Below, one piece after another: positions 46,806-56,138 of a DNA stretch of 64,000 nucleotides. Within the stretch, counting starts at the first letter, position 1; the number at the start of each line of letters is the position of its first letter. The notes beneath the pieces are model-generated. The model saw only the letters and a program-made list of their open reading frames with translations. It was not told the origin of the DNA and ran no database searches. Location of the stretch: the NCBI GenBank assembly GCA_963804995.1, contig CAWDSK010000005.1:608001-672000 (forward strand), read 5' to 3'. The position numbers and the translations under genes are program-made. The stretch comes from an uncultured Acidobacteriota bacterium (GTDB lineage Bacteria; Acidobacteriota; Terriglobia; UBA7540).

Positions 46806-47450
46806 CTAACAACACTCCTCGCCCTGCAACGCTTTCTTCCCTTCCAGGCAGATGATTGGAACCGCAACCAGCGCGGCGGCGGGGTCTATCCAGCGGATAT
46901 GAAATACAGCATTGAGCACCAAGCCGGCAAGGGTTATGCCGGCAAGGTAGGCGCAGGTTGCTGACTGCACCGCGTCGGCGGTTAATGCCGCGTTGCGGGA
47001 CGTTTTCCCGGCTCTTCGCTTCGCCGAACTCAGCGCGGGCATGACGGCGAGCGCGGCAAGGGTGACGCCCATACCGATCCAACTTGTGTCGGGCCGCACA
47101 TGCCGCCAAAACGCGAGGGCAGAGCTCATGGTAATGACCGCGGCGAGCAGGAAGAGAAGAATGCCTGCGAGCCTCGTGGCCCGAGCCGTGCTCAGAGCAA
47201 GGCTTGGGAGGAATTGTAGAAGCACCACAAGCGCCGACAAGAGTTCGATGAGACTATCGGCGCCGAAGGCCAAAAGCACGGGGCTGCGTGCGCGCCATGC
47301 GGAAAAGAGGGCAAGGGCGCACTCAACCACCATCCAGATCAGCGTGAACACCTGCAACCGCATAATCTGGCGCGATAATTCGCCGGAAGTTCCTGCGCAT
47401 CCACACCCGTGGGTCAACGTCGCGCGCCCTCTTTCTTCTTCATAGCTCAT
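46806..47450 (-). CDS. Cation-efflux (CDF-like) membrane protein
   Basis: WMVVE, LLAFGADSLIE, ALTADA, WIDP; six hydrophobic segments; Cys-rich termini. Confidence 0.85.
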   Translation of the reverse strand: MSYEEERGRATLTHGCGCAGTSGELSRQIMRLQVFTLIWMVVECALALFSAWRARSPVLLAFGADSLIELLSALVVLLQFLPSLALSTARATRLAGILLFLLAAVITMSSALAFWRHVRPDTSWIGMGVTLAALAVMPALSSAKRRAGKTSRNAALTADAVQSATCAYLAGITLAGLVLNAVFHIRWIDPAAALVAVPIICLEGKKALQGEECC

Positions 47451-47454
47451 AGTG

Positions 47455-47624
47455 CCTGTACCACCGCCCCCGACGGCTACTTTTTGCGCTTGAATCCGGC
47501 TTGGGATTCAACCCTCGGTTATACCCGCGACGAACTCAAGGCCAAGCGCTCCTTTGACCTCATCAACCCTGACGGCGTGGGGGCTACCCGGAAGGCCACG
47601 GTCACGAAGATGTCGCGGTCATGA
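47455..47624 (+). pseudogene. PAS-domain fragment
   Basis: DGYFLRLNPAWDSTLGYTRDEL...DLINPD. Confidence 0.6.
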
Positions 47625-47750
47625 AGGATCAGACGCCCCGACCTCGACATGCGATCAATCTACGCGCGATGCCGTGCGGAGGCAAGAGTGAACAAAGTCG
47701 GCGAACGCGGGCGGGTACGAAGAGCCGGGGACCTATGAGACTGGCCCTCG

Positions 47751-48530
47751 CTACTGGCTGTACTTGGGAATTATCTCATGCATGACTCTGTGCTGACCTC
47801 GTGGCGTTAACGCAAGGTCGCCATCGTGCACCGGCCGGACCTGTCGAGTATTAATGAGCTTAGTAATCGCCGCGTTTAACGTAGGAGTTTTCCTGAGCGG
47901 TGCGTACTGTCGAATCGCCGCTCTGCTGAGACGATTGCTGGCGGCGTGATTCAATAAGAGCAGAATTTCGTCAGATGCTGGAATATCGGATTCGAGGACC
48001 AGTGGCTGGCCGTCCAACTCGTGAATTAGAGTGTGCTGAAGTTGCACGATCTGAGCGATTGCTTCAGCAATAACCTGTTTGTCGGCAGTCCAAGCGAGCC
48101 GCAGAAACTCAGCGAACATCCATTTTCCAGCGTGCAAAACGAGCATGGAGTCCATGTAATTCGCGGTGTAAACGGGGGAGATGTGCACGGGTCCGCGATC
48201 GGAGCGAAGTTTGTATACCAGGCGGATGGCCCTGCAAAAATGGCGGCGGTCTCCTGCAGCGAGATTATGGGAATGCTTGTTATTAAAGTCTTCGAGGCGA
48301 TCACAGAGCGTGCCTGGCAAATCGCTGTGTGTGACCGCGCCTGAATCGAGTTGATAGAGAGCACGAGAAACCGCCTCACAGAGCCGACCTCCGTCGAGTT
48401 CTGCTGGTTTCCAATCGCCGGCAAGAAATCGTTGCTGCATTTCCACGTACCCATCCACGATTGCTTGGGCGAAGGCAGGGTCTACGACGGCTGCAAGCTC
48501 GATAGCGAGTTGATCCTTTGAAATGTTCAT
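47751..48530 (-). CDS. Putative HEPN-like RNase + C-terminal wHTH
   Basis: Helical N-domain with GRLCEAV and R-x6-H (RSDRGPVH); C-terminal LTPRG wing; start overlaps upstream stop (ATGA). Confidence 0.7.
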   Translation of the reverse strand: MNISKDQLAIELAAVVDPAFAQAIVDGYVEMQQRFLAGDWKPAELDGGRLCEAVSRALYQLDSGAVTHSDLPGTLCDRLEDFNNKHSHNLAAGDRRHFCRAIRLVYKLRSDRGPVHISPVYTANYMDSMLVLHAGKWMFAEFLRLAWTADKQVIAEAIAQIVQLQHTLIHELDGQPLVLESDIPASDEILLLLNHAASNRLSRAAIRQYAPLRKTPTLNAAITKLINTRQVRPVHDGDLALTPRGQHRVMHEIIPKYSQ

Positions 48531-49744
48531 TGTTTTGTCGCCTTGGACAACTGCTCGGCGCGCTTCGTTCCGCTCGGCGTCAACTTATAGCCATCTTCAG
48601 TCTTGATAACGAAATCCTTGGCAGTCTCGCGCTTCAAGGTAACCTTAATAGACCGCTCTTTTTCGTTAAGGGAAAAAGCTGCGACTATGAAACGTTGTAG
48701 GTAAAGACCCGACGCCGCTTTGCCGCCTACCTTGTGAATGGCCCAGAGTGCTAGGATGGCCTTGTCGAGGATCGTCTTATCCTTCAAAATGAAATGACCG
48801 TCAATGTGGTCGGTGTGCTTCTCCCATTTCCCCGCCCATTCCTCTGCCAGTTGCGACCGTTTTCTACCTACCCTGCCGGTTGGCCTTGTTTCTTTTGTAT
48901 CGCGGCCTGGCTTTACTGCTTTGGTTTTGGATTCAGGAGTCCAGCCAGGATCAGCATGGTTAATGTCTAGAATTTCATTCAGCACCTGAATTGCTCTTTC
49001 TCGGCCCGCCTTCTTAAGGCGGATGTTGTCTCCGTCTATCTCCACCGCCATCTTTTGCCTTAGTTCATGGCGCGTGTTGTTATCCCACACTTTTGATGCG
49101 TCGAGTATTTTCCTCAAGTTCGTGACCGGGATTGGCTTTCTTCCGTGCAGTTCGTGCGCGTAAAGGAACAAGTAACTCAAGCGGCGGGCGTATTCCAGGC
49201 TACTGTCCGCCTTCAACCGATTTTCTTCGAGTTTGAAATCCTCGCCGTCGGGTTCGAAGATATTGCCGAGCCGTTCGGCATCTCCCGCCAACTGTGCAAC
49301 GGGTTTCGCCTCCATCTGGTGCTGCAGATCAAGCGGTTGGCCAGTTGTTCCAGCGCCCTGCGCTGGCGGCAACATAGGTTGCACGTGCGTGTCGTCGCCT
49401 GTTTTGAGTGTTCGCCTGCCGTGCGAAGCCAGCTTGTCTGAGAGCAGTTGATTCACCGTATCCCCGACGCTGCCAATAGCTGTGTCAGTGAAGCTTATGC
49501 GAAGAGACCGACTTCGCGTATCCTCCTGGAGCTCTAGAGTGTTCATCCGAGGAGCATTGCCGTTTGTGCCATTCCCGGCCGCACCGGCGCCGACGGTGGC
49601 ACCGCACATTACGCATGCCCGCGCATCCTTTTCGAGCAACTCCCGACAGTCTTTGCAGCGCACTTGCATGGCACAGGAAGCACAAAAGAACCCACGTTCG
49701 GCTAGAAGCACCCCACATGATGGACAGTTTTGCATTTGAGACAT
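48527..49744 (-). CDS. Double zinc-ribbon protein with two putative wHTH domains
   Basis: CPSC, CASC, CKDC, CVMC; IRLKKAG and YKLTPSG wing motifs. Confidence 0.75.
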   Translation of the reverse strand: MSQMQNCPSCGVLLAERGFFCASCAMQVRCKDCRELLEKDARACVMCGATVGAGAAGNGTNGNAPRMNTLELQEDTRSRSLRISFTDTAIGSVGDTVNQLLSDKLASHGRRTLKTGDDTHVQPMLPPAQGAGTTGQPLDLQHQMEAKPVAQLAGDAERLGNIFEPDGEDFKLEENRLKADSSLEYARRLSYLFLYAHELHGRKPIPVTNLRKILDASKVWDNNTRHELRQKMAVEIDGDNIRLKKAGRERAIQVLNEILDINHADPGWTPESKTKAVKPGRDTKETRPTGRVGRKRSQLAEEWAGKWEKHTDHIDGHFILKDKTILDKAILALWAIHKVGGKAASGLYLQRFIVAAFSLNEKERSIKVTLKRETAKDFVIKTEDGYKLTPSGTKRAEQLSKATKQ

Positions 49745-49818
49745 TGTTTATATCCTTTTATGAATCTGGACCTGCGGATAACATACACCTTACTGCCCCT
49801 GAACGCAATCGCAGCCGG

Positions 49819-49904
49819 GTAGCCACGGTCAATCGTACTTTGATTGACCGTGGGCCTTTACCCATGACCACAAACCCACGGTCAGGAAGGCACTGGCCGT
49901 GGCT
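49819..49904. repeat. GTAG-type REP pair
   Basis: gtagccacggtcaatc...gattgaccgtggg then ccacggtca...tggccgtggc; same family as 1364-1396. Confidence 0.7.
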
Positions 49905-49916
49905 TGTATCTACCCG

Positions 49917-52900
49917 CTAGAGGGCGGGCAAGGATTTTACGAGCTTCACGGTTTCAAGGCTCACGCGGATGACCTGGCCCACGAGGCGCACGATGTATTC
50001 GGGGTCGTCGGATCGATTGGGGTCGGAGCGGATGCCGCTGTGCTTGTCTTCCGTCACCTGGTATTGGTCAATCACCCATTCGAGGGCGCTGCGATTGCCC
50101 AGGCGGTATTCAAAGGTTTCAGGGGGGATGCCGCTTAGCGTCAAGGACTCGTTTACCTTGAGTGAGTGGTGGTCTTTCGCGAGGCGCATTTTGTCCTCAA
50201 CACGATAGGAGAGTGGAATCGTAGCGCCGCCGTCCCGGCGGCCGGTAGTTTGCCGGCGGGACGCCGGCGCTACAGCGCTCGTCTCGATGAATTTCAGCGG
50301 GTACGGTTCGAGCGTTTCGTAATCAATGTGCAGGTGCGCCAGTTCCTTCCCGGCTTTCGAGAATCCCCAGAAATCCTTCGCGAGCGGGATGCGCGGCAAT
50401 TCGCGCTTCAGGTTCTCCGCGTATTTGGCGCGGTACACAGGATGATGCAAAACACCGTAGACGTAATAGAAGATGTCCCATTTGGTGATTTTCTTGTCGT
50501 TGTAATAGATGCGGAAATGGTCCAGCGCCCAGTCGGTGATGTTTTCGTGTCGCGTCACCCCGTCAGACTCGTAGACGTAGAAGGGGAAGCATTGATGGCC
50601 ATCAACGGATGCACAGAGATGTAAGTCCGCAGGATGGTTCACCGCCAGTATATTTATCGAAGGAGACCGATACGCAAGATCGCTCGTCACAAGCATGCGG
50701 TTGTCGATTGCAGCCGTATCGTTTGGGAAGAATGAACGGCAAAGGCCCGGCGTATCGTTCAGCAAATCCGCCAGGTACAAGTAGCGTTTGGTGAAGGGTC
50801 GGTACTCTGCGGTTTTAATCCTAGACTCGTTAAACTCGGCATATCTTCGACGCCGCAGATCTTGCTTTAGGTCGCGGCTCCATTTCACCTTGGAATAGTT
50901 GAGGAAGCGGTCGAAGGCTTGCCCTTGGAGTTCCTTCCTGCTGCGCTTATACCGGTCAACCTCTGCGTTGTAATCCTCACAGAATTCTCGCACTCTATCT
51001 GCCAATTCGCCGCGACTGAAATCGTAAACCACTTCATCCCGATTGGTTGAAACCCCTAGAGAATAAGTCTTGAATATGGTCTGGGGCTCCAGCTCTGCGG
51101 CGCGGCCCTCCTTCGTTGCTACAGGGGGGAAGGTTTCGAATTCCTCCGCACCAATTGTCAGCCATTTCCCCGGAGTCAATTTTCCCCAATCCACCTTGGC
51201 CACTGTGCCAGTGCGCGACAACCAATCTAGTTTTTGTTCCTTGCGCCAGTTCTCCGGCAGCCGGTAGTAATGAAGTCTGTGTTTTCCGTCGTCTCCGCGC
51301 CGCACTGCGACCGTTACCCCAACTCCGACTTGTATGCCAAACACATTATGCGTCGTTCCGCTTAACTTGGGATTCTTGCGAACATTCCCGTGAAGGTCCA
51401 CGTGGTAGACGTCCGTGAAATCCTTTAACAGGTGTTCCTGCATGCCATCAAAAGCCTGCTGGTCCACGAAGCTGTTGTTTGAAATGAAGCAAACAATGCC
51501 GTCCCGCCCTTGGAGGCGATCGGTGGCCCAACGGAAGAACTTGACGTAGGGGTCGTACAACTTTGTTTTAAGCGTTGCTTTTGAGGCTCTTGCATACGTT
51601 TCCTTAATCCTACCGTCAATTTCCTTGTACTGCCTGTTCTTGTTGTTATCGTTTTCGTTTTGCTGGCCCATGTTGTAGGGCGGGTTGCCAATAACCACCG
51701 TGATGGGTGTCTTTCTTTGCCTTTCGACGCGCTCTGCGTTCTTCTCCGTTAAATATAGGTGGGGCTGGCTGGACTTGCTAAGGTCGAGCGTATCCACAAA
51801 GCACAGCCCTTCAAAGGCCTCGTACTCGCCAGTGAGCTCGAAGTAGGCGTGTTCGATGTTGAGCGAGGCAATGTAATACGGCAGCAGCATCACTTCATTG
51901 GCAAATAGCTGCTCGCGGTACACGCGCGGCAAGTCGCGGCCGGACATGCGGCGCAGCAGGTTCACGATGAAGTTACCGGTGCCGGTGCAAGGGTCGATAA
52001 TGTATACATCGGGGCTGGAAAGGCTTTTGCCAAATTCCTTTTCCAAGACCTCAGCCACGCTCGCGCACATGAAGTTGACGATTTCCTGGGGTGTATAAAC
52101 AATGCCCATCGTGTCAGCCAGCTTCACCGAGTAGCCCTGGAAGAAGCGCTCGTAAACGGTGTTCAGGAAGTGCTGCTTTTCGCTGAAGTCGGGCAGGGTG
52201 CGCGCGGCGTTTTCGATGGCCAGATAGAAACGATCCAGGCTCTTCAGGTACTCGGTGCGGTCGAAGCTATGGCTCACCAGGGCCTCAATGACCCGTTCCA
52301 CTTCCGCCGCGATGGCGTTGCGCTTCACGAATTCTGGGTTGTTGAAGATGGTTCGGAACAGGCGCTCGGTGAGCAGGTGCTGCACCAGCATCTCATCCAC
52401 GGCCTCAACGCGGATGTTGGGGTTCAGCGCAGTGCGGCAAAGGTCAAAGAACTTTTCGAAGGCGGCTTGGAATCCCGCATTGTCCTTGTGCGCCCGCTGG
52501 ATCTTCTCCACCAGGCCACGCGCGAGGTCCGGGACTCGCTCCTTGAATTCTTCAATCGCTTCTTCGAATCCTTCGATGTCCGGCTCGGTGTAGGAGAAGA
52601 ACTGGTTGAGAAGGGCGACCAATTCCTTCGGGTTGCCGAGCGTATAAGGCCCGTTGACCTTCTGTTTGTTCTGAAACAGGACGCCGGTTTGGGTGTCCTC
52701 GAAGACAATGTTGGAGAGCGGGTAGCCGCGCGCGATCTTCTTTTTGATTTCGCTGTCGAGATCGTCCTGGGTGTCTTTGGCTTCCCAATAGCCACGCGGC
52801 AGGCTGTTGCGGTCGCGCAAAGTGCCGTCAGGACGAATCAGCGCGCCGCCGGATTTCCCGGAAAGCTCCGGAATCAGCGTCCAACCCTTGAGCTTGGCGG

Positions 52901-53030
52901 TCTCCTGAAGCAGGGACTCGAAGGGCGAGCGCACGCTCATTTCGTTCAGTACACCCTGGTCCCGCAAGGCCGCGACGTTTTCGTAATACTTGCGAATGGA
53001 GCGGTGGGTGGGAGCGATAAGTCCACTCAT
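49917..53030 (-). CDS. Fused restriction-modification enzyme (type IIG-like; N6-adenine MTase with type ISP-like C-terminal specificity region)
   Basis: RPDG...YWEAK nuclease motif, DPCTGTG (motif I), GNPPY (motif IV), YRPF, YYVYGVLH, RSALEWVIDQY; no helicase motifs. Confidence 0.9.
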   Translation of the reverse strand: MSGLIAPTHRSIRKYYENVAALRDQGVLNEMSVRSPFESLLQETAKLKGWTLIPELSGKSGGALIRPDGTLRDRNSLPRGYWEAKDTQDDLDSEIKKKIARGYPLSNIVFEDTQTGVLFQNKQKVNGPYTLGNPKELVALLNQFFSYTEPDIEGFEEAIEEFKERVPDLARGLVEKIQRAHKDNAGFQAAFEKFFDLCRTALNPNIRVEAVDEMLVQHLLTERLFRTIFNNPEFVKRNAIAAEVERVIEALVSHSFDRTEYLKSLDRFYLAIENAARTLPDFSEKQHFLNTVYERFFQGYSVKLADTMGIVYTPQEIVNFMCASVAEVLEKEFGKSLSSPDVYIIDPCTGTGNFIVNLLRRMSGRDLPRVYREQLFANEVMLLPYYIASLNIEHAYFELTGEYEAFEGLCFVDTLDLSKSSQPHLYLTEKNAERVERQRKTPITVVIGNPPYNMGQQNENDNNKNRQYKEIDGRIKETYARASKATLKTKLYDPYVKFFRWATDRLQGRDGIVCFISNNSFVDQQAFDGMQEHLLKDFTDVYHVDLHGNVRKNPKLSGTTHNVFGIQVGVGVTVAVRRGDDGKHRLHYYRLPENWRKEQKLDWLSRTGTVAKVDWGKLTPGKWLTIGAEEFETFPPVATKEGRAAELEPQTIFKTYSLGVSTNRDEVVYDFSRGELADRVREFCEDYNAEVDRYKRSRKELQGQAFDRFLNYSKVKWSRDLKQDLRRRRYAEFNESRIKTAEYRPFTKRYLYLADLLNDTPGLCRSFFPNDTAAIDNRMLVTSDLAYRSPSINILAVNHPADLHLCASVDGHQCFPFYVYESDGVTRHENITDWALDHFRIYYNDKKITKWDIFYYVYGVLHHPVYRAKYAENLKRELPRIPLAKDFWGFSKAGKELAHLHIDYETLEPYPLKFIETSAVAPASRRQTTGRRDGGATIPLSYRVEDKMRLAKDHHSLKVNESLTLSGIPPETFEYRLGNRSALEWVIDQYQVTEDKHSGIRSDPNRSDDPEYIVRLVGQVIRVSLETVKLVKSLPAL
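50221..50273. repeat. GTAG-type REP pair inserted in frame within the RM gene
   Basis: gtagcgccgccgtcccggcggc...gccggcgggacgccggcgctac encoding VAPASRRQTTGRRDGGAT. Confidence 0.85.
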
Positions 53031-53082
53031 AACGATGGAGGCAATACTAGCACTTTGAGGGGGGCGGACCAAGCGCCAATGG

Positions 53083-55064
53083 TTGTGTCGGATGGGGGGA
53101 CATTGTCGGTGGCGGACGTGAAAAGCCGCGGACCTCAGAGACGGAGGTCCGGTGCGCCGGGATAAACCGGCAGAAAGCAGAGAATGAAAATTTCTCACGA
53201 GGAAGGAGCAGCGATCCACTCGGCCCCGAGTTTTGCGCTGGGCGTCGTGAGGCGCACGGTGAAGCGTAAACAGGGGAATAGGTGGGCTGGGTATTGAGCT
53301 TCGAAAATGTCCAATCAGGACGCCGACGTTTTCAGACTAAACGGAAGGCAACATGAGGCCGGGACGCCAACGCGAGTTCCGGCACAGTCCTGCGTAGTCG
53401 TAGACCCCAGACACGCCTAGACACTTTCTGCACGAGAACCGGGAGACCTCGGAGGCGCCGGCCGCCGTAGATCGTGGCCGGACGGCGGGAAAAGGCGATG
53501 GCCGTACAGCCCGCCTGCACGCTTTCGAGGAGTCGGACAGCGGAACAGTACCGATGAATCATTTGAACAAAGACGGGAAGCCGTTGGCGGAGAATGAGGA
53601 GGGAAGGCCGCTGATCAAGGAGAACACCCGTTGGCCTAACACGCACCCGACACAGAGCGGGGCACGCGTGTCCCAGGGACTCGCGGGTGTGCGGAAAGCC
53701 GCGAAGGAACACAGGGAGATGAAGTTCACGGCCTTGCTCCACCACTTAACGGTCGATCTGCTGCGGGAAAGCTTTTACGCCTTGAAGCGAAAAGCTGCAC
53801 CGGGAGTAGACGGCATGACGTGGCAGGAGTATGAAAGCGGGCTGGAAGGTCGACTCGTCGATCTGCACAGCCGGGTCCACCGCGGAGCATTCCGAGCGAA
53901 GCCCTCGCGAAGGGCGTATATCCCGAAAGGCGACGGGCGGCAACGTCCGTTGGGGGTTGCGGCACTGGAGGACAAGATCGTCCAACAGGCCGTGGTCACC
54001 ATCCTCAAGGCGATTTACGAGGAAGACTTTCTGGGCTTCTCGTATGGCTTTCGACCGGGATGCAGCCAGCATCAAGCGCTGGACGCGCTCTCGTACGCGC
54101 TCACGGTGAAGCACGTGAACTACGTTCTTGACGCGGACATTCGTGGATTTTTCGATTCGATATCCCACGAATGGATGCTCAAGTTCGTGCAGCATCGCGT
54201 CGCCGACCCCCGGATTCTCCGGCTCATCCAGAAATGGCTGAAAGCCGGGGTGAGGGAGGAAGGCGAATGGTCGGAGACGGAGATGGGTACGCCACAAGGG
54301 GCGGTGGTCTCGCCCCTGCTGGCGAATATCTATCTGCACTACGTCTTTGACCTGTGGGTGCAGGCGTGGCGCAAGAAGCACGCCCGGGGAGACGTGGTCG
54401 TGGTGCGGTATGCCGACGATACGGTCCTTGGATTCCAATCGCAGACGGAAGCCGACCGCTTTCTGGAGGATTTCCGGGAGCGGGTGGGGAAGTTTGGATT
54501 GGAACTGCATCCTGACAAAACGCGCCGGATCGAGTTCGGGCCGTTTGCCGAACTTTACCGGAAACGGAGAGGAGAAGGTAAGCCGGAGACGTTCGACTTT
54601 CTGGGCTTCACGCATATCAGCGGGAAGAACCGGAGGGGGCAATTTACCGTGAAGCGGAAGACGATCAGCAAGCGCCTGCGGGGGAAGTTGCAGGAACTCA
54701 AGCAACAACTCCGGCAGCGTCGGCACGATCCCATCGCGGATACGGGTAAATGGCTCCGGTCGGTCGTGCAAGGCTACTTCAACTATCACGCGGTACCGGG
54801 AAACCTCAACCGCCTGCGAATCTTTCGGGAACGGTTGACCCGACTGTGGCGAACGCAACTGCGTCAACGCAGTCAACGCCACCGCCTCAACTGGGACCGA
54901 CTGGGGAAGCTTGCGGCCTGCTGGTTGCCTGCTCCGCACGTTGTGCATCCTTGGCCATCCCAACGGTTCGCCGCCACACATCCGAGATAAGAGCCGTATG
55001 CGCTAACCAGCGCACGTACGGATCCGTGCGGGGGGTACCGGGTAACCGGTATCCCTACCGCAAC
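53083..55064 (+). mobile_element. Group II intron (bacterial class E-like, no En domain)
   Basis: 5' TTGTG (variant of GUGYG; boundary inferred); DV gagccgtatgcgctaaccagcgcacgtacggatc; DVI ending ctaccgcaac; RT ORF inside. Confidence 0.88.
53554..54990 (+). CDS. ltrA: Group II intron reverse transcriptase/maturase
   Basis: APGVDG, RPLG, SYGFRPG, DIRGFFD, GTPQG, RYADD, FDFLGF; the real start may be later (e.g. MKFTALLHH). Confidence 0.95.
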   Translation: MNHLNKDGKPLAENEEGRPLIKENTRWPNTHPTQSGARVSQGLAGVRKAAKEHREMKFTALLHHLTVDLLRESFYALKRKAAPGVDGMTWQEYESGLEGRLVDLHSRVHRGAFRAKPSRRAYIPKGDGRQRPLGVAALEDKIVQQAVVTILKAIYEEDFLGFSYGFRPGCSQHQALDALSYALTVKHVNYVLDADIRGFFDSISHEWMLKFVQHRVADPRILRLIQKWLKAGVREEGEWSETEMGTPQGAVVSPLLANIYLHYVFDLWVQAWRKKHARGDVVVVRYADDTVLGFQSQTEADRFLEDFRERVGKFGLELHPDKTRRIEFGPFAELYRKRRGEGKPETFDFLGFTHISGKNRRGQFTVKRKTISKRLRGKLQELKQQLRQRRHDPIADTGKWLRSVVQGYFNYHAVPGNLNRLRIFRERLTRLWRTQLRQRSQRHRLNWDRLGKLAACWLPAPHVVHPWPSQRFAATHPR

Positions 55065-55135
55065 CGCTACACTTGCTTATCGGGAAGCTGCCATGGCGAG
55101 GTAAACTCGCCGCCACATAGAAACCACAGCCGACC

Positions 55136-55348
55136 TCAGGCAAAAACTTGTTGCAGTGTTTTCAGCGTCGAAGCCAAAACTGCCGGGCGAATCGTTCCCA
55201 GTCGTTTGACCAACCGGACCTTGTCCAACGTCCGGAGCTGGTCCAGAAGAATCAGTCCGCGCTTTCCGGAAAGAGTAACGGCAATGCGATAAGGGGCCGG
55301 TCTGGCGCCGGTAGTCATAGGAGCCACAATCACTATCCGAAGCTTATT
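55136..55348 (-). pseudogene. 5'-truncated PemK/MazF toxin
   Basis: VIVAPMTTG...GLILLDQLRTLDKVRLVKRLG; N-terminal catalytic RP motif absent; no antitoxin nearby. Confidence 0.8.
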
Positions 55349-56138
55349 GACGGCAGCGAGGCTGATGCGGCGATCCCACATCCTGTCCATCAGGTGCCGG
55401 GTCGGTTCTTGATCTTGTGGTTGAGTCCCCCGGCCCGACTCACCAGGTTGTTCATTCGGGTGGGGGGGGACTAAGGTCGGCAACGTCTCTTGCCGATATA
55501 TGATTATGGATGAGAGGGTGGCGTCCGTCTGGTCTGAGTTCGGTTTGTAGAGGGGAGGGAGAAAGCCGATGGGTGACGGTGGGCATTTGTAAAGATGGAG
55601 GGACATCAGGGGGGGATTCAGACTGGTTTCTGCACACAATTGGGCCGCGGAGATTTCAGGTGGACGTTTACTCCAAGTGGGTCGTGGCCTTGGGCTCAAA
55701 AATCCATTGTGGCGGGCAGAACCAGGGAAAGGAGTGTCCTGGAGGTGATGGAGATAAGTCGTAAACTGTCATTTGTACCCCTGGAGGGTGAAAGACCCGG
55801 TCGTGGCTGATGGCGATAGAGGTAATACTTCCTAGGGGACTTGAAGAATGCATTTATTCGTTGATAATTGGTTTCTCTCCGGTACGTCCCGCGCGGACAC
55901 CGCGCCGGAATGGAGAGTTCCCAGGAACGTTTAGGTTCCCAACGGTTGTTCGCGAGTGGATTTGCGAAGCCGACACAACTTGTTTGCGGTTTGTTATCGG
56001 GTGATTTCTTGCCGGGCCGAGGCATTGGCAGATTTCTGACACGGTGGCTTGTATAAGGCGAGCAAACGACCCTGGTCAGGTCGCAAAACGTGACTTTCTG
56101 GGAACTCCTGTGAGTCAGACGGCGGAGCTTTATTTTCT

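Follow-up and report, generated by a model that had tools for sequence, protein, structure and literature searches.

HEPN domains with an Rx4-6H motif act as metal-independent RNases, and their coupling to restriction-modification (RM) systems is established, as set out in the passages of Anantharaman et al. (2013; PMC3710099) on which we draw. The HEPN active site is formed as a dimer, according to the relevant parts of 10.64898/2026.07.14.738597 and PMC13092281. The first of these two sources describes, in the sections used here, the Type IX retron Kva2, in which a winged-helix (WH) protein wraps and silences the HEPN protein; WH and msDNA together cage the latter, which a phage exonuclease probably sets free. 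HEC-08, as presented in main-text passages of Payne et al. (10.1101/2024.01.29.577857), is a validated defence gene that combines HEPN with zinc-ribbon-like domains.

The closest described class is poly-wHTH (PRA-wHTH), a computational prediction in section 37 of a bioRxiv preprint by Li, Burroughs, and Aravind (10.64898/2026.10.19.760177). That section describes a fast-evolving wHTH that was initially noticed in front of ParA and Tox-RelA and that elsewhere precedes an effector gene, most commonly HEPN and also cyclase, HKD, or TIR; the wHTH can be arrayed in tandem or over several genes, and no fewer than four N-terminal extensions are described for it. The class is so far a one-paragraph prediction, and in the literature searched it appears only in this preprint, with no published experiment found on any member of the family. 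Here we describe a pair of genes, A and B, that provides a compact 2-kb, two-gene test case for it.

Two overlapping genes downstream of a restriction gene

The pair lies in a window of 64,000 nucleotides, i.e. the whole stretch of DNA that was analysed, and all coordinates refer to this window. The genes and the adjacent features are as follows:

47751..48530, minus strand: ORF B, 259 aa, predicted RNase effector
48527..49744, minus strand: ORF A, 405 aa, predicted sensor/scaffold
49823..49902, no strand: two palindromes between the RM gene and A, with REP copies genome-wide
49917..53030, minus strand: single-chain REase-MTase, a neighbour outside the module, with likely start at 53030 (1037 aa)

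The two co-oriented ORFs overlap by ATGA (48530-48527), and the pair sits directly 3' of the RM gene, both as in the original prediction; from the end of that gene to A there are 172 bp. Both are real genes: 408 homologues of B turn up in a word-indexed search, A has 85, and the B family comprises 721 clusters at 50% identity in a profile search. The pair has a GC content of 0.535 vs 0.585 for the genome, which places it at the 2.7th percentile among 2-kb windows. Its GC3 (0.57–0.59) is below that of the five genes on the sugar-gene side (0.66–0.80), and the claim that the pair is richer in AT than the sugar genes therefore stands; the RM gene has a GC3 of 0.70.

The palindromes upstream of A were considered as an operator of the pair and rejected, because they are REPs found across the genome (73 exact-pattern copies, 64 of them with a GTAG flank). 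No conserved operator of the pair was found, and a scan for sigma-70 promoters gave 0 sites vs 1.4 expected. The REP-like family with the GTAG flank also occurs at 1370-1394, often as inverted pairs, and forms dense clusters (e.g. C1 653-661 kb); no transposase that might partner the family turned up in a brief search with one Y1 transposase as query.

Predicted domains of the two proteins

The domains assigned to B and A, all on the minus strand, are listed with the basis of each assignment:

48084..48494: HEPN domain of B, aa 13-149 (structure match and conservation)
48183-48206: R-S-x-R-x3-H of B, R109-H116, at the end of helix 3 (motif position)
47760..48038: beta-hairpin and MarR/PadR-shaped wHTH of B, aa 165-257 (AlphaFold model)
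49604..49726: double zinc ribbon of A, aa 7-47, four CxxC (pLDDT 92-94)
49430..49546: beta-hairpin and helix of A, aa 67-105 (DSSP E67-75, E79-86, H87-105)
48941..49291: wHTH1 of A with the preceding helix and beta-hairpin, aa 152-268 (model)
48542..48859: wHTH2 of A, aa 296-401 (model)

The AlphaFold model of B (pLDDT 91) contains a helical domain (13-149) followed by a MarR/PadR-shaped winged helix (179-259). The best match of the helical domain is the HEPN structure 2hsb (VIA-align Z 12.3, rmsd 2.9, 123 aligned); four more HEPN entries come next in the structure ranking, namely sacsin HEPN, TT1696, ST0689, and Csm6 (3o10, Z 11.7; 1ufb, 11.3; 1wol, 10.9; and 6tug, 9.9). Helical bundles can reach a VIA-align Z near 12 by chance and Foldseek with the B model gave no match at E 0.001, so the position of the motif is needed as support for the HEPN match. 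The Rx4-6H and the polar residue after its R fall on helix 92-111 and the loop that follows, and the Ex3R corresponds to E52/R56 in helix 2.

These residues are strongly conserved among 122 diverse B homologues (18–80% identity). E52 is present in all 122 and R/K56 in 105, i.e. the acidic Ex3[KR] of HEPN is there; R109 is kept in 120, S/N110 in 119, R112 in 118, and both H116 and D127 in every homologue, with a spacing of six residues between R109 and H116 throughout. The helical domain with an upstream E (GRLCEAV), an R-x6-H (RSDRGPVH), and a terminal wing, all foreseen in the original prediction from the letters alone, are thus present, the wing being a winged helix in the model, and the HEPN-like character proposed for this protein is upheld by fold and by an intact catalytic signature. 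As such, B is predicted with high confidence to be an active HEPN RNase. In its four-helix fold, Ex3R, Rx6H, and polar residue after R, it resembles the HEPN RNases treated in those parts of Anantharaman et al. (2013, PMC3710099) that concern HEPN-MNT toxins, PrrC/RloC, and ApeA. Unlike HEPN-MNT and PrrC/RloC, its partner is a wHTH protein rather than an MNT or ABC ATPase, and it matches no Pfam HEPN family.

B has no match in Pfam, PADLOC, or NCBIfam, and none of the 122 homologues matches a Pfam HEPN family at E 0.01. Only scattered weak PADLOC matches appear among them, and MarR_2 is matched by 6/122. The wHTH of B aligns with 4hqe (VIA-align Z 11.8) and 7wze (11.2), a PDB sequence search gave weak wHTH matches only, and the ESM Atlas returned unnamed clusters, with Hypoth_Ymh (score 0.79) as a lead only. 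This HEPN family is widespread and is missing from the versions of Pfam, NCBIfam, and PADLOC that were searched. No PADLOC-DB 2.0 family matched A or B at E 1, and a further 22 proteins from the family, either partners or effectors, gave no match at E 1e-5; a check against described systems in PADLOC accordingly gave no match to either protein. HEC-08 differs from the pair in being a single protein with a DUF3644 HEPN in the text of Payne et al., and the main-text passages of that study and of DefensePredictor (PMC13092281) contain no HEPN system with the layout seen here.

In the model of A, a double zinc ribbon is followed by a beta-hairpin-helix, a disordered linker, wHTH1, a second linker, and wHTH2. 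The four CxxC pairs (C7/10, C21/24, C30/33, and C44/47) and the two wing-like motifs claimed for this ORF are both found, each wing being a winged helix in the AlphaFold model. Pfam DZR matches A at E 2e-4, below the curated cut-off, and exceeds that cut-off in several homologues; of the 8 zinc-ribbon Cys, 6 are each conserved in 90% or more of 75 homologues. wHTH1 has a Z of 7.0 to 3l7w over 180-265, and wHTH2 has a Z of 9.6 to 1stz and 9.1 to 2qvo, while Foldseek searches of PDB and BFVD with the A and B models returned nothing at E 0.001. The beta-hairpin-helix is a possible oligomerisation element. Small partners of distant B homologues begin with a pattern that resembles it, and a profile comparison between the two found no link (probability 0.5%).

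A short form of A (∼290 aa) that lacks wHTH2 forms a well supported Acidobacteriota subclade in the tree. The wHTH domains diverge faster than the HEPN domain, with 28–44% vs 51–69% identity in 11 loci (L001 set apart), and 65–71% vs 83% in the closest locus.

Probable membership in the poly-wHTH class, and distribution

The pair shares with the poly-wHTH class, as the latter is worded in the preprint (10.64898/2026.10.19.760177), an upstream gene for a fast-evolving wHTH, tandem copies in one polypeptide, and a downstream HEPN. Relatives of the pair also have variable N-terminal extensions, and related wHTHs occur before ParA-RelA and beside TIR. Unlike the class as it stands in the preprint's main text, with which the comparison is one of text only, A carries a zinc ribbon and B has a wHTH fused to HEPN. 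The preprint text makes no mention of a zinc ribbon under three spellings, but its N-terminal extensions could include the zinc-ribbon form or not, and the wHTH-HEPN fusion may likewise be part of the class; no paper on a double zinc ribbon with HEPN in defence was found in the literature searched. From the wording of the preprint, we infer that the HEPN of the pair is the HEPN family it refers to.

A further connection comes from locus L147, where a small wHTH partner and a B homologue come after wHTH-ParA-RelA/SpoT. A seed profile made of the ParA-RelA wHTH of this locus and its 120 homologues matches the gene directly upstream of the B homologue in L066 (E 5e-27) and L065 (7e-6), as well as many small partners. 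Once iterated, it gathered small partners, and of 32,758 frames taken as decoys from the genome of the window it recruited none.

The wHTHs of A are distant from the ParA-RelA wHTH. Without extension, the profile gives no match to A (probability below 1%), and iterative HMM searches in either direction did not join A-wHTH1 and the ParA-RelA wHTH at E 1e-3. The extended PRA-wHTH profile, which is dereplicated and contains no A-type sequence, matches A-wHTH1 with 88% probability (E 3e-6, 73 columns) and A-wHTH2 with 93% (E 2.6e-7, 74 columns) in what is a profile–profile comparison of short wHTH folds. The same profile against small control families reaches 67% for PadR and 48% for HTH_34, over 43–44 columns, and the wHTHs of A against these two controls reach 1–18%. 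By contrast, the wHTH of B matches generic controls nearly as well (79–86%).

Multiple wHTH copies are seen within the pair (two in A, one in B) and around B homologues elsewhere, where L070, L174, L176, L177, L179, and L181 have arrays of at least two wHTH genes; the array in L070 includes a second HEPN-like gene and TIR, and that in L181 a TIR-like gene. Given L147, the L066 and L065 matches, the extended profile, and the arrays, the B family is very probably a HEPN effector of the poly-wHTH class. For the window pair itself, the extended profile supports a placement as a long-sensor member, and we regard its belonging to the class as quite likely. The original prediction that the pair has no match to a named system thus holds for Pfam, NCBIfam, and PADLOC models, but the pair does fit a class that has been named in the preprint.

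A second kind of effector, which starts with the wHTH and ends with an R-x4-H HEPN-like motif, is encoded at L070:10046-10885 and L155:4941-5687, and it also follows small wHTH partners.

Pairing of the two genes is conserved, with an A homologue upstream of B in 40/47 genome loci. The other seven comprise three at contig edges, one with a truncated A homologue, and three with a 190-aa partner instead. In genome samples and metagenomes, the more distant homologues of B follow a partner of 150–220 aa that ends in a wHTH. Over all fetched loci, a wHTH partner lies directly upstream of the B homologue in 129 of the 144 that could be evaluated (8 further loci were left out as contig edges), a count that is partly circular because the profiles were built from these partners; most of the remaining 15 show a similar upstream gene by eye. 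The N-termini of the partners vary, i.e. DZR plus hairpin, hairpin only, or helical.

The distribution is patchy and extends over several phyla. Full-length matches numbered 3 among 40 relatives and came from 9 of 400 genomes of the phylum; two samples, each of 350 genomes outside the phylum, added 1 and 10 genomes. Hosts of the zinc-ribbon form belong to Acidobacteriota, Cyanobacteriota, and Armatimonadota or are Chloroflexota-type, and the double zinc ribbon may have been joined to B lineages at least twice (main clade and L178 in the tree). No homologue was found in the phage records and viral contigs searched. Among plasmids, Natronomonas gave the sole match for B, and there was none for A or for one small partner.

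The Natronomonas plasmid gene (L074:5941-6813) is an archaeal solo HEPN-wHTH homologue of B for which no upstream partner was found, and its C-terminus resembles A-wHTH1 by eye. In 15 loci of Nostoc and Leptolyngbya (L013-L034), a divergent gene that weakly matches WYL flanks the pair, and two coiled-coil genes lie downstream of the pair in 18; these flanking genes possibly reflect either a larger fixed unit or mere shared synteny. B homologues are interrupted by insertions in L040 and L044, with IS21-type genes in L040.

Proposed mode of action and its alternatives

We consider it likely that the pair acts in defence, a role that would come as no surprise to a specialist for a wHTH-HEPN pair. 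With moderate confidence, we describe it as a two-gene module of the poly-wHTH kind with a HEPN effector, directed against selfish elements and most likely against phages. The two fast-diverging wHTHs of A, aided by the zinc ribbon and the hairpin-helix, would bind and coat invading DNA; B would join this A-DNA assembly through its own wHTH and be clustered into active dimers, which would cut host RNA (tRNA or rRNA) and so lead to dormancy or abortive infection. The reading of A as a DNA sensor that activates B, and not as a simple antitoxin, is tentative, and we place it a little short of an even chance. A broader version is doubtful: one conserved HEPN-wHTH RNase may serve as a modular platform switched on by exchangeable winged-helix sensors that co-assemble on foreign DNA, the double zinc ribbon being an added sensor for a phage protein. 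If true, this would be a DNA-sensing, RNA-cutting system without ATPase, nuclease, or second messenger. The compact pair, the named catalytic residues (E52, R109, R112, H116, and D127), and the natural variants in the family, which differ in wHTH number (one or two) and in the presence of a zinc ribbon, make both sensing or coating by wHTH arrays and gating of HEPN directly testable.

The main rival to the sensor model is a Type II-like toxin-antitoxin (TA) system, in which B would be active by default, A would keep it silent and also repress the operon, and B would be released by phage infection or when A is lost. The order of partner and then toxin, the ATGA coupling, and the near-obligate pairing are all consistent with it, as is the silencing of HEPN by a winged-helix protein in the Kva2 account (10.64898/2026.07.14.738597). 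However, three cyanobacterial loci have an intact B with its motif and a damaged A (L030 retains A profile positions 351-402 only, L032 lacks 150-354, and L028 is split near 320), which leans against an obligate antitoxin, even if loss of expression or silencing could explain these cases. The solo HEPN-wHTH of Natronomonas, the great differences in length and N-terminus among the partners, and the lack of a conserved operator among local palindromes that are REPs also argue against it, and we regard the TA system as unlikely.

Less probable still is a retron-like guard, in which A and B would sit inactive on host DNA until a phage nuclease degrades that DNA and releases B. The Kva2 precedent of a HEPN caged by WH and msDNA, as described in the parts of 10.64898/2026.07.14.738597 cited above, is a parallel, i.e. 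an HEPN RNase with a separate DNA-binding winged-helix protein as its controller, such control being what is proposed for the pair. A also has a weak fold match to the Retron-Eco1 effector (Foldseek E 0.09), and the PADLOC retron wHTH model WH_III-A is matched by 6/122 B homologues (best E 1.5e-4), but both matches are at the level of a generic wHTH. Unlike the pair, Kva2 has, in the same parts of that source, a HEPN without Rx4-6H and a WH with two HEPN-binding domains, and it needs an RT and msDNA. The pair is accompanied by neither a reverse transcriptase nor an ncRNA, and the RT of the window, which was considered as a retron component, was rejected as such: it belongs to a group II intron present in multiple copies in the genome.

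Genomic surroundings of the pair

Defence and TA genes, labelled post hoc by the analyst, are more frequent close to the pair (16/132 genes within 4 kb vs 5/115 at 5–10 kb, Fisher P = 0.04; by locus, 11/29 vs 4/29 have such a neighbour, P = 0.07). The 29 loci are of the zinc-ribbon type, with most Nostoc duplicates dropped. This sustains the defence context of the original prediction in so far as the pair resides in defence slots, but the enrichment is modest, with 18 of the 29 loci having no recognisable defence neighbour. Many loci lie among housekeeping genes and the wHTH folds resemble MarR/PadR regulators, as would suit a non-defensive stress regulator pair or a selfish addiction cassette. 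We hold this to be very unlikely in view of the invariant RNase residues, the sporadic spread over several phyla, the residence in defence slots, and a wHTH family common to ParA-RelA and TIR effector loci.

The adjacent RM gene is Type IIG/ISP-like: PADLOC assigns it to REase_MTase_IIG (E 7.5e-218), its reading frame (49917-53219) has the Type ISP coupler and specificity domains, and Pfam found no helicase domain in the protein. Across 13 genomes of the genus, 17 stretches with the 3' end of this RM gene were compared, and neither A nor B lies beside that gene in any of them; the slot 3' of it holds other cargo in all 17, with recognisable defence or TA genes in 9, and three loci that share the cation-efflux flank of the window have different genes in each. 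Conversely, a clear RM system within 4 kb of the pair is seen in 2 of the 29 zinc-ribbon-type loci (L005 and L040), both Type I. These counts, together with those of defence neighbours, point to the pair as mobile cargo that favours defence slots, and its link with the RM gene is positional. The back-up role of the original prediction, here taken as PrrC-like with B unleashed upon inhibition of the adjacent restriction enzyme, fits the co-oriented position just downstream, the HEPN-RM coupling described in the passages of PMC3710099 cited above, and the Type I RM upstream in L005 and L040, but it is highly improbable given the genus and pair-locus counts, neighbours that are never of this RM type, the difference in GC3 between the pair and the RM gene, and the REP copies between the RM gene and A.

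Two further features lie on the far side of the RM gene:

53120-55077, plus strand: group II intron, with RT at 53554-54990
55136-55699, minus strand: PemK/MazF-like toxin reading frame (Pfam E 3e-12)

The genome has at least nine further copies of this intron at 99–100% identity; the one in the window lies ∼90 bp 5' of the likely RM start and may thus have displaced the RM promoter. The PemK/MazF-like frame sits between the intron and a NusG-family gene that heads the polysaccharide cluster.

The slot 3' of the RM gene (47450-49917 in the window; L182-L198 in the genus) is a defence hotspot in the genus. Its cargo includes a GIY-YIG-RAMA nuclease in 5 of the 17 loci, as well as an AbiEii-type ATPase pair, HEPN_AbiV, Schlafen AlbA_2, and a nucleotidyltransferase TA. 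Unannotated cargoes in L182 (220 and 301 aa), L183 (366 aa), and L196 (179 and 185 aa) are candidate new defence genes.
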